A DNA stretch of 58,426 bases, the filler included, from Diploschistes diacapsis (Eukaryota), in the NCBI GenBank assembly GCA_023645945.1. It is 4 parts of 4 records of this genome, joined end to end, with 100 filler letters (N's around TTAATTAATTAA, not from the genome) between each part and the next. Parts side by side here need not be neighbours in the genome. Positions count along the whole stretch, not along the records: positions 40,855 to 49,603 come from JALAIB010001114.1; 3 more parts are not named here. One strand, written 5' to 3'. The notes under the pieces were generated by a model, which saw nothing but the letters and a program-made list of their open reading frames with translations, did not search any database and was not told where the DNA came from. Shown here piece after piece: positions 47,314 to 48,987 of this stretch (position 1 is its first letter; every line of letters begins with the position of its first letter). The translations under genes and the position numbers were made by a program.

Positions 47314-48987
47314 ATGCATATATCACAAGCACTCATCGCCGCCATTGTCGCCTCCAGTGCCTCCGCCCACGTTCTCGACCAACTCTACACAAACGGCCTT
47401 TTCGAGCGATCTGCTCTTGCAGGGCCCACAGACAAAAGCACTAAGCCTGAACCGGGTAGGCCCAACAAAGAGCTTTTAAGACAAAACAGCGGCAGCGGTG
47501 CTCAAGAAGGCAAGCATCATGCTCAGGGCGAGCACCAGCAACAGGGCAGCAGCAGCCGCCGCCTTGACAGATCGTACGGCGGCAAAGGCGAAGGGAATCT
47601 CTTCGGCCAGCACAAGCAGGAGGCAGAGCGCCAGCAAAAAGGTGAGCACCAGCAACAGGGCAGCAGCATCCGCCGCCTTGACAGATCGTACGGTGGTAAA
47701 GGCGAAGGGAATCTCTTCGGCCAGCACAAGCATGAGGCAGAGCACCAGCAAAAAGGCAGCAGCAGCAGCCGCCGCCGCCTTGATGGATCGTATGGTGATA
47801 AAGGCAAGGCGAATCTCTTAGCCCACCCATCTCTACCTGAAAGCCCATTCGCTACATCACAATCACCCTCGGGCAGTCACCCGGGGGGCTTCGAAGCGAT
47901 CCACGAGAAACAACCAACCCCCAATGAACGCAGAGACGCCGATGCGGATGCCTACGTTGACGACGACCTGGTTCTGAACGACCTCTACGCCAGGGACCCG
48001 GAGGAATTCTTGCGCGTACTCTCCGCACGCGACCCCGAAGCTCACCTCTCACTCAAGAAGTTCTTCCATAAACTCGGGCACGGCATCAAGGAGGGCATCA
48101 GCGATGTCGCCAACGTCGTGAAAATAGGCGCCTCACTAGCGGCTCGAGATGCGGACGCCGATGCCGAATCACTGGAGTTTTCGGAGGGGATGATTCTCGC
48201 GCGAGGCGCCGAACCCGAACCAGAACCCGAAGCGGAAGGGGAAGAGGAGCTGGTGCTTGACCTTCTTTACGCCAGGGATGCAGACGCCGAAGCCGAAGCC
48301 GAAGCCGAAGCCGAAGCCGAAGCCGAAGCCGAAGCCGAAGCCGACCCCGAAGAGGAACTATCACTCGAGCTTCTTTACACCAGGGATGCAGAAGCCGACG
48401 CCGACGCCGAAGCGGATGAGCAGCTGGCGCTTGAGTTTCTTTATGCCAGGGATGCGGACGCCGAGGCCTTGAAGTTTCCAATCGGTAGTTTCATGCACGC
48501 CGCCCACCACCACACGCGCAAGAGCGGCAGGTGGGCCAAGAAGCACCCGAGCGAGTTGATAGATGCGGCGGATGCGGCGCAGTCGCTCGTCCAGAGCCGG
48601 GACGCGGACGCGGACGCGCTCTTGGTGGACGACGACGAGCTGCTCGAGGCACTGTACGCGCGCGACGCCGAAGCGTGGGCGGAAGCGGATCCGGAGGCGT
48701 GGGCGTGGGCGGGGCCAGATACAGTTGGTACGGCACAGGCGCGTGCGGTTGAGCATGGACAAGCTGACATGCTGCAGCCGCATCATTTGCCATTTCTTAA
48801 TCCGCCTGAGCAACAACACCTGAATCCAGCAGTACGTGCAGCGCATGCGGCTGCGGTGGCGGCACTGGCACCACCGTTCCCATGGGAAGGGCAAGCACAT
48901 GGGAGAGGAGCAGGGGTGGGGCGGGGCCAAGAGCGATGGCGCGGGCACGGACCCGGGGTACCACCACCGCGACAGGGGAATGCGTAG
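47314..48987 (+). CDS. Secreted multi-peptide precursor (Kex2/Ste13-type processed repeat protein), 557 aa
   Basis: Good-context ATG (CCAAAATG) and signal peptide MHISQALIAAIVASSASA. About 9 (L)xxR sites (LYAR, LSAR, LAAR, ILAR, LYTR, VQSR) plus ERR, each followed by X-Ala/X-Pro dipeptide runs. RR-flanked 38-aa repeats. Single long exon. Confidence 0.88.
   Translation: MHISQALIAAIVASSASAHVLDQLYTNGLFERSALAGPTDKSTKPEPGRPNKELLRQNSGSGAQEGKHHAQGEHQQQGSSSRRLDRSYGGKGEGNLFGQHKQEAERQQKGEHQQQGSSIRRLDRSYGGKGEGNLFGQHKHEAEHQQKGSSSSRRRLDGSYGDKGKANLLAHPSLPESPFATSQSPSGSHPGGFEAIHEKQPTPNERRDADADAYVDDDLVLNDLYARDPEEFLRVLSARDPEAHLSLKKFFHKLGHGIKEGISDVANVVKIGASLAARDADADAESLEFSEGMILARGAEPEPEPEAEGEEELVLDLLYARDADAEAEAEAEAEAEAEAEAEADPEEELSLELLYTRDAEADADAEADEQLALEFLYARDADAEALKFPIGSFMHAAHHHTRKSGRWAKKHPSELIDAADAAQSLVQSRDADADALLVDDDELLEALYARDAEAWAEADPEAWAWAGPDTVGTAQARAVEHGQADMLQPHHLPFLNPPEQQHLNPAVRAAHAAAVAALAPPFPWEGQAHGRGAGVGRGQERWRGHGPGVPPPRQGNA
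47527..47820 (+). repeat. 114-bp coding tandem repeat (2 full copies plus 1 partial)
   Basis: Units start at 47527, 47641 and 47755 and encode GEHQQQGSS(S/I)RRLDRSYGGKGEGNLFGQHK(Q/H)EAE(R/H)QQK. Confidence 0.95.
48286..48343 (+). repeat. (GCCGAA)n hexamer repeat encoding (Ala-Glu)n
   Basis: Perfect in-frame hexanucleotide run. Confidence 0.95.

Follow-up and report, generated by a model that had tools for sequence, protein, structure and literature searches.

The window analysed in this study, a stretch of 58,426 nucleotides joined from four parts of the genome assembly of Diploschistes diacapsis (GCA_023645945.1), carries at 47314..48987 of its + strand, within the part taken from JALAIB010001114.1, an open reading frame (ORF) of 557 codons plus stop that is unbroken and requires no intron. 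Its predicted product, P0001, is the subject of this report; the original prediction had described it as a secreted polyprotein built of modules that would release several peptides. The start codon is the first ATG in a stop-to-stop frame of 640 codons and is backed by P0002, a colinear protein with 56% identity over the first 32 residues. The N-terminus, MHISQ-ALIAAIVASSASA|HV, is signal-peptide-like (aa 1-18, 47314..47367), with a hydrophobic core, Ala at -3 and -1 and a predicted cut at ASA/HV, all judged by sequence rule, and the relatives P0002, P0003, P0006 and P0010 have similar signal-type starts. The protein contains neither cysteine nor an N-x-S/T sequon, and its net charge is -44 overall. 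Modelling with AlphaFold2 on a 4-row alignment gave a mean predicted local distance difference test score (pLDDT) of 40.8, with 443 of the 557 residues below 50. The missing Cys and the low pLDDT thus suggest that P0001 is without a folded domain that would compete as the product.

Behind the putative signal peptide, with all features on the + strand, lies a first cassette, HVLDQLYTNGLFER (aa 19-32), followed by SA-LA-GP (47368..47427) and conserved in P0002. The next part is a hydrophilic low-complexity region (aa 39-207, 47428..47934) with RR or RRR at aa 82-83, 120-121, 153-155 and 206-207, which is replaced by (GGKPS)n in P0002. It includes the RR-flanked repeat of the original prediction, a tandem repeat at 47530-47767 with a period of 114 nt, 2.1 copies and 93% identity that encodes RR-bounded units of 38 aa. 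The 18 residues of LDRSYGGKGEGNLFGQHK are identical in two repeat copies despite two synonymous DNA differences (GGC to GGT, twice). The modular region (aa 208-468, 47935..48717) contains ten Arg sites with their X-Ala/X-Pro runs and has a net charge of -51. It opens with the acidic module YVDDDLVLNDLYAR (aa 214-227, 47953..47994) and the short module EEFLRVLSAR (aa 230-239, 48001..48030), followed by peptide A, which begins HLSLKK, ends GASLAA and occupies aa 244-277 plus R278 (48043..48147; 34 aa, net +3, 3 His). Four acidic modules come next, ESLEFSEGMILAR (aa 285-297, 48166..48204; its RDADADAESLE stretch is common to P0006), EGEEELVLDLLYAR (aa 308-321, 48235..48276), EEELSLELLYTR (aa 346-357, 48349..48384) and DEQLALEFLYAR (aa 368-379, 48415..48450), and a (GCCGAA)11 array at 48286..48352 encodes most of the 12-dipeptide run behind R321. 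Peptide B, from LKFPIG to SLVQS (aa 386-428 plus R429, 48469..48600; 43 aa, net +3, 5 His), is followed by the acidic module LLVDDDELLEALYAR (aa 436-450, 48619..48663), by the heterogeneous run of nine dipeptides DA-EA-WA-EA-DP-EA-WA-WA-GP (48664..48717) and by a C-terminal tail rich in His, Pro, Gly and Arg (aa 469-557, 48718..48984; 89 aa, net +1, 7 His). Within the modular region, Lys is restricted to peptides A and B. The two His-rich cores and the His/Gly/Arg-rich tail are thus present as they had been described.

A predominant feature of P0001 is the strict register of dipeptides behind its Arg sites. When sites are counted by the last Arg of each basic run (n=29), at least two X-[Ala/Pro] dipeptides come next behind 11 of the 29, sites that are not independent because the modules are internal duplicates, while 2000 composition-preserving shuffles gave a mean of 1.46 such sites and a maximum of 6. 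The ten sites of the modular region are R207, R227, R239, R278, R297, R321, R357, R379, R429 and R450, with R227 carrying one dipeptide only (DP), and an additional site follows the signal peptide (LFER32|SA-LA-GP). These eleven sites carry 1-12 dipeptides each, 49 in total, which amounts to 98 of the 557 residues. Runs of at least three dipeptides begin immediately after Arg in 10 of 12 cases, at an Arg frequency of 0.061. An aliphatic P4 residue (L/I/V/M/F) goes with the runs: nine of the ten Arg sites so preceded carry at least two dipeptides, R227 with its single one being the tenth, compared with 2/19 of the other Arg, and the two exceptions with runs and no aliphatic P4 are R207 (dibasic RR) and R508 (in the Ala-rich tail). 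R234, R402 and R406, which lie inside presumed peptides, have no aliphatic P4 and at most one dipeptide. There is no KR anywhere in P0001, the sites being xxAR, xxTR, xxSR or RR, then dipeptide runs. Repeats accompany the modules at the DNA level, with a period of 66 nt (76% identity), together with the (GCCGAA)11 array and other period-6 repeats. The combination of signal peptide, aliphatic-x-x-Arg sites and X-Ala/X-Pro runs is real and non-random. It bears out the signal peptide (by rule) and the register claimed earlier, and the five dipeptide runs quoted at that time are present exactly as written; the count of about ten modules holds for the ten sites where they had been placed, except that R227 carries a single dipeptide and the R32 site had gone unlisted.

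An exhaustive phmmer search of 1.84 billion representatives returned only two matches to P0001 at the threshold of E<=0.001, namely P0002 and P0003. A word search with residues 208-470 at E<=10 listed six proteins; among the five that were read, P0005, P0006, P0009 and P0010 carry the cassette. P0007 was rejected as a relative, since it has no cassette and matches by a chance DADADA, and the precomputed Pfam domains of the sixth, P0008, are unrelated. The whole-protein word search gave nothing at E<=0.01 among 8000 scored candidates, a word search with region 376-470 gave nothing among 3200 candidates, the ESM Atlas held no usable match for the whole of P0001 or for residues 240-297, and the best hit of a PDB sequence search had an E of 0.35. 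Pfam contained no family above its cutoff in P0001 or in the six relatives, with sub-threshold compositional matches only. A pattern scan of metagenomes matched 575 stretches, none of them confirmed by tblastn, and a scan with a degenerate pattern matched at least 121 stretches, chance-like and mostly GC-rich (rich in guanine and cytosine), none being multi-cassette among the matches listed. A look-up of sequencing runs listed no RNA run. An already characterised homologue, a point that the original prediction had left to be checked, was thus not found by phmmer, word searches, Pfam or the PDB.

The cassette, an acidic stretch followed by [L/I/F][Y/F]xR-(X-Ala/Pro)n, recurs in P0002, P0003, P0005, P0006, P0009 and P0010. 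The sole named relative among them is P0006, a hypothetical protein of the Graphidaceae lichen fungus Thelotrema lepadinum, and the start of P0005 is not signal-like. Colinearity of P0002 with P0001 extends over the signal peptide, the first cassette, a low-complexity region (of different sequence), the acidic modules of LYAR type, DAEA and two peptides, the latter occupying the same positions as in P0001; the W-x-K-x-HP stretch of peptide B aligns between the two, and P0002 ends soon after its final dipeptide run. The alignment of P0003 covers peptide A together with three cassettes (38% identity over 125 aa, pairwise E 5e-12). Arg sites with at least two dipeptides number 4/7 in P0002, 5/15 in P0003, 6/16 in P0005, 4/18 in P0006, 5/19 in P0009 and 6/24 in P0010, so that each relative has 4-6 such sites against shuffle means of 0.3-1.0. 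Over the seven proteins, runs stand behind 36 of 65 Arg with an aliphatic P4 and behind 5 of 63 others (Fisher p 4e-9), and with P0001 left out the counts are 27/55 and 3/44 (p 3e-6). Position 2 of the dipeptides after Arg is Ala in 144 cases and Pro in 49, X is drawn from 14 residue types, and 29 of the 43 runs of at least three dipeptides begin directly behind Arg (Arg frequency 0.03-0.07). The inserts between cassettes are unrelated: P0003 and P0009 have a GNFMSKP segment that contains Cys and is duplicated, P0010 has Lys-rich helices, and tandem DLYER units occur in both P0005 and P0010. A sister group formed by P0003, P0004 and P0009 has the same cassettes around a duplicated Cys segment of about 65 aa (..GNFMSKPHP..C..) that belongs to no Pfam family, and the tail at the end of P0009 contains 10 His. 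The tandem units of P0005 and P0010, DLYER and DLYDQGLYER, place an Arg every 5-10 residues and carry no dipeptide runs.

These counts bear on the unlikely alternative that P0001 stays uncut, as a secreted disordered polyanion of the wall or matrix that would serve in Ca2+/metal binding, modulation of oxalate minerals or water holding, its (EA)n, (DA)n and (EP)n runs having arisen by hexanucleotide slippage. Diploschistes lichens are oxalate-rich and metal-accumulating. Both net charges (-44 for the protein, -51 for the modular region), the absence of a predicted fold, the (GCCGAA)11 array with the other period-6 repeats, the His-rich stretches of P0001 and P0009 and a compositional similarity to procyclin that stays below threshold (Trypan_PARP, 20.6 bits vs a cutoff of 100) are consistent with it. 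What it leaves unexplained is why runs start directly behind Arg (29/43 over the seven proteins), why they are linked to an aliphatic P4 and why position 2 is fixed as Ala or Pro while X spans 14 residues. Moreover, slippage cannot account for the heterogeneous runs GA-EP-EP-EP-EA and DA-EA-WA-EA-DP-EA-WA-WA-GP.

Since its site grammar fits the Kex2/Ste13/Kex1 pathway site by site, we favour with moderate confidence the reading of P0001 as a pre-pro-polyprotein that is cut by a kexin-type protease and trimmed by Ste13- and Kex1-type enzymes, the cassette being a portable module for processing and escort; every one of these steps is an inference. The signal peptide would first be removed after Ala18, and in the late secretory pathway an Arg-specific convertase would then cut at the ten monobasic Arg with an aliphatic P4 (mostly L-Y-A-R) as well as at the four RR/RRR sites. 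A Kex2-type kexin is the most likely convertase, a yapsin-type protease presumably being the alternative. A Ste13-type dipeptidyl aminopeptidase would strip 1-12 X-Ala/X-Pro dipeptides from each new N-terminus, and the C-terminal Arg would be taken off by a Kex1-type carboxypeptidase. Cleavage by Kex2 falls behind Arg, is favoured by Leu or some other aliphatic residue at P4 and accepts a non-basic P2, and LxxR has been used to recognise Kex2 pro-domains (PMC8528282). Ste13 strips repeated XA/XP dipeptides after Kex2 cleavage and Kex1 takes the basic residue (PMC6339444, PMC9769878), a substrate rule that is matched by the Ala or Pro at position 2 with variable X in the runs of the seven proteins. 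Peptidomics has shown XA/XP removal for basidiomycete precursors expressed in Pichia, with peptides that appeared to end at a single Arg (PMC9769878). The analogy with Kex2 LxxR and Ste13 XA/XP processing drawn by the original prediction agrees with these three papers (PMC8528282, PMC6339444, PMC9769878).

The expected output was derived by in-silico cuts after Ala18 and then after Arg with a basic P2 or with L/I/V at P4, after which leading X-Ala/Pro pairs and the trailing Arg were taken off. This digest gives eight acidic 9-14-mers, each acidic in its N-half and hydrophobic towards its end, of which five finish in -L-Y-A/T (for example EGEEELVLDLLYA, EEELSLELLYT, DEQLALEFLYA and LLVDDDELLEALYA), 31-50-mers from the RR-bounded region, including two or three 31-36-mers from the RR repeat, and peptide A, peptide B and the 89-aa tail. 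The helical hydrophobic moment is 0.61 for peptide A (reached by 2/1000 shuffles) and 0.58 for peptide B (12/1000), and none of the acidic modules is amphipathic in the same test. The processed precursor would thus deliver peptides A and B (34 and 43 aa, both +3, His-rich and amphipathic) together with the eight acidic peptides, the RR-repeat peptides and the C-terminal tail. In our interpretation, the conserved and portable module for processing and escort is the acidic [L/I/F][Y/F]xR-(X-Ala/Pro)n cassette, which fits its position beside unrelated inserts in the relatives, and the peptides between cassettes are fast-evolving cargo that is probably membrane-active, surface-active or metal-binding.

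Several observations weigh against this reading. The statistics are inflated by the internal duplication and by slippage of hexanucleotides, both of which can also preserve a register without selection. The commonest P2 residue is Ala, which is outside the top-ranked Kex2 alternatives (Arg, Thr, Pro, Glu, Ile), and the conserved aromatic P3 is unexplained, as Kex2 reportedly makes no P3 contact in the available portion of the same source (PMC8528282); both features depart from these Kex2 data, and another Arg-specific protease is possible. Many LYER sites of P0005 and P0010 have no dipeptides behind them, and the tandem units of these two proteins, if cut, would give tetra- to nonapeptides, a poor fit to the idea of an escort cassette. 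Three acidic cassettes of P0001 stand back to back without cargo between them. The acidity of the modular region (-51) is far beyond any escort need, and neutralisation by acidic spacers, as originally proposed, does not account stoichiometrically for such an excess over two peptides of +3 each, so that it cannot be the whole reason for the acidity. The equivalents of peptides A and B in P0002, in the same places, have net charges of +1 and 0 and no significant amphipathicity (162 and 118/1000 shuffles), and those in P0003 and P0009 are amphipathic (7 and 9/1000 shuffles) but not cationic. The cationic cores of the earlier description therefore do not extend to these relatives, and a cationic or antimicrobial role is at most a property of the P0001 gene and not of the family.

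The acidic modules may, as predicted released peptides, be products in their own right. The division into cargo and spacer made by the original prediction stands as far as the grammar goes, while its "spacers" turn out to be the best-conserved repeat, with three of them back to back, and would be released as 9-14-mers. This leads to a quite unlikely alternative in which P0001 is indeed processed, the functional product being the repeated acidic peptide (eight copies, in the manner of a pheromone or of the Kex2-processed repeat proteins, KEPs) with an acidic N-half and a hydrophobic -L-x-L-L-Y-A end, and the cationic peptides being by-products or lineage-specific additions. In its favour, repetition within P0001 is confined to the acidic modules, which are also common to all seven proteins, three of these modules adjoin with nothing between, and the STE13 signature has been taken as a mark of secreted signal peptides (PMC6339444). 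However, the copies are far from identical, unlike those of alpha-type pheromones or KEP cores (six acidic modules align, with 29-67% identity to the first), the units shrink to 4-9 residues (DLYE) in P0005 and P0010, and the modules have no amphipathic pattern. The pre-pro-polyprotein with reusable cassettes and variable cargo remains the reading that we prefer.

We conclude that P0001 is encoded by a genuine gene without introns that belongs to a lichen-forming ascomycete (Graphidaceae, Diploschistes-like). That this gene is non-functional, whether as an ORF that arose by chance or is decaying in repeat-rich DNA or as a wrongly modelled gene (wrong C-terminus, missed intron), is very unlikely. 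Such a view could draw on the absence of the exact P0001 sequence from a collection of 15 billion proteins in which four of six neighbour ORFs looked up are present, on the lack of any counterpart of the 89-aa tail in P0002 and on the long antisense ORFs that overlap the gene. On the other hand, an open frame of 557 codons at about 50% GC is improbable by chance, P0002 is colinear with its N-terminus 56% identical, the grammar is common to six other proteins, and a six-frame motif scan of the window found the cassette cluster confined to the P0001 frame. The absence from the collection may be due to length variation of the (GCCGAA)11 array, which is likely to vary between isolates. The true C-terminus is nevertheless uncertain, because the tail has no counterpart in P0002. 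C-termini of the form E-G-(x)-aromatic occur in four of the six relatives (P0002 ...EEWGY, P0003 ...GEGF, P0005 ...IIEGF and P0009 ...FEGVY), and P0001 reads ...PFPWEG at 48883-48987 (aa 524-557), then CAA (Gln), then 30 residues. Judged from this sequence, the final 31 residues may have been added by read-through once a stop was lost; inspection of the other frames gave no alternative C-terminus.

The surroundings of the gene are those of a fungal genome. Of the four neighbour ORFs present in the protein collection, three fall into 90% clusters with proteins of a Diploschistes diacapsis genome, which places the window in this species or a near relative. A Pfam scan of 34 ORF translations from the window, which short exons may escape, identified Fungal_trans, DUF3405, Fung_rhodopsin, an acetyl-CoA transporter and an MFS transporter. 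Two TATAAAG strings read directly from the sequence stand on the + strand 5' of the gene, at 47098..47104, about 210 nt from the ATG, and at 47259-47265. The 4.5 kb 5' of the gene (42800-47300) contain ORFs of at most 167 codons, of which six were scanned against Pfam with zero matches, and could be an unrecognised multi-exon gene or a long intergenic region. At 1-1732 a GC-rich stretch (the first 2 kb are 63% GC) has overlapping open frames on both strands (519, 576 and 445 codons), and the two of these long frames that were scanned against Pfam gave no match.

The neighbourhood also bears on whether P0001 could be a precursor of a ribosomally made peptide with post-translational modification (RiPP) of the dikaritin kind, with Tyr cores cross-linked by tailoring enzymes. 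The Tyr conserved just ahead of the cut site, and a signal peptide with many convertase sites as in ustiloxin-type precursors, would suit such a precursor. We consider it extremely improbable, as the sites are monobasic, the cores are not near-identical and neither DUF3328/UstYa nor tyrosinase nor another tailoring family was found among the 34 scanned ORF translations, a scan that short exons may escape. In addition, the available portion of the KEP survey states that precursors of the ustiloxin and epichloecyclin types have no STE13 signature (PMC6339444).

If P0001 is processed as we propose, the range of Kex2/Ste13 multi-peptide precursors includes ones with monobasic LYxR sites, a single gene is able to supply unrelated peptides through reuse of one cassette, and the peptides of 34 and 43 aa become candidates for antimicrobial, surface-activity or metal-binding roles. 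The secreted peptides of lichen fungi are, to our knowledge, almost unexplored, and we are aware of no peptide that serves the lichen symbiosis as a signal or antibiotic. Catalogues of KEPs that rest on KR/RR/KK would miss such monobasic precursors, as far as the available text of these surveys describes them (PMC6339444, PMC7329392). If it is not processed, P0001 remains unusual as a secreted polyanion from a lichen rich in minerals. A broader idea, which we offer tentatively and on which we would not rely, is that there is a hidden and rapidly evolving family of cassette polyproteins in lichen fungi, and possibly in further Pezizomycotina, and that within this family a portable cut-and-trim and escort cassette yields peptide cocktails. 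In such a family almost any peptide placed between two cassettes would be delivered with exact ends, and the cocktails of unrelated amphipathic, His-rich and acidic peptides could act as antimicrobials or as signals to the algal partner.

Among known systems, yeast prepro-alpha-factor and the alpha-type pheromone precursors of filamentous ascomycetes (Ccg-4, Ppg1; PMC7329392) share with the scheme predicted for P0001 the signal peptide, a pro-region, the convertase cut behind Arg, the X-Ala/X-Pro runs for Ste13 and the Kex1 step. The convertase site with X-Ala/X-Pro (the STE13 signature) occurs at 11 sites in P0001, whereas near-identical copies of one short mature peptide, the other trait of this class, are missing. 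Alpha-type precursors use dibasic KR, while P0001 uses monobasic [L/I/V]-x-x-R, mostly LYAR, has predicted products heterogeneous in length, charge and sequence and carries runs of up to 12 dipeptides. KEPs are likewise secreted precursors with many convertase sites, some of them with STE13 signatures, and 79 of the 1193 KEPs in the survey of Le Marquer give two or three repeat types (PMC6339444, PMC7329392 for the class; PMC6339444 for the survey). They are defined by KR/RR/KK flanking repeated motifs (PMC6339444, PMC7329392), a definition that the RR repeat of P0001 (2.1 copies) alone fits, as its ten main sites are monobasic and its modules are only 29-67% identical to the first. The strings YARDA, YERDL, ARDAEA and ARDADA were not found in the supplement text of the two surveys (PMC6339444, PMC7329392), which is possibly incomplete and makes this weak evidence.

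Candida albicans Ece1 is also a polyprotein that gives non-identical peptides, one of them amphipathic, helical and membrane-active (PMC12153327). It had been invoked as a parallel for charge neutralisation; according to the available text, the non-toxin peptides of Ece1 aid secretory passage by shielding the hydrophobic toxin from aggregation, and not by countering charge (PMC12153327). The peptides of Ece1 are separated by KR, at seven sites, and are processed by Kex2 and Kex1 only, with Ste13 runs absent and the toxin very hydrophobic, whereas the companions in P0001 are strongly acidic and in large excess, and no homology to Ece1 appeared in the exhaustive phmmer search (E<=0.001), which gave only P0002 and P0003, or above the cutoffs in Pfam. 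Rep1 of Ustilago maydis resembles P0001 as a polyprotein giving several peptides, of a size that we take to be close to that of peptide A, and the exhaustive phmmer search gave no sequence relation between them. Precursors of the Rep1 type release amphipathic peptides that build amyloid on the surface of hyphae, and peptide A has the amphipathic helix pattern. Rep1 is a basidiomycete protein with dibasic Kex2 sites and related repeat peptides, and has no STE13 signature as far as the available text of the survey goes (PMC6339444).

The effectors with a Kex2-processed pro-domain (K2PP) share with P0001 the aliphatic P4-x-x-Arg motif, placed in an acidic and disordered part of a fungal protein that is secreted (PMC8528282). 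They have one N-terminal pro-domain, with KR, RR or LxxR at its end, before a folded effector, while P0001 has 10-11 sites, LFER32 among them, and no folded domain. Prepromelittin and apidaecin have an acidic pro-piece, and X-Ala/X-Pro dipeptides are removed stepwise in melittin-type precursors. In frog antimicrobial peptide precursors an acidic pro-piece is likewise joined to a cationic amphipathic peptide, and convertases cut between acidic spacer and bioactive peptide (PMC13444074). These animal venom and skin precursors belong to another kingdom, are unrelated in sequence and mostly have one cargo or identical copies, and dikaritin-type precursors have many near-identical Tyr cores of 4-6 residues flanked by KR, which P0001 does not. 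Literature searches with motif strings and on lichen secretomes and Kex2 or on secreted genes of Diploschistes gave nothing on the cassette family, for which we propose at least four Arg sites with at least two in-register dipeptides, a signal peptide and no Pfam domain as marks; P0001 has 11 such sites and the six relatives 4-6 each, P0005 being without a signal-like start. From their sequences, these proteins appear to form a family of monobasic, cassette-built precursors with heterogeneous cargo, seen so far in lichen-forming fungi. While the three-enzyme grammar is familiar to the specialist, the cassette architecture and the lichen setting are new.

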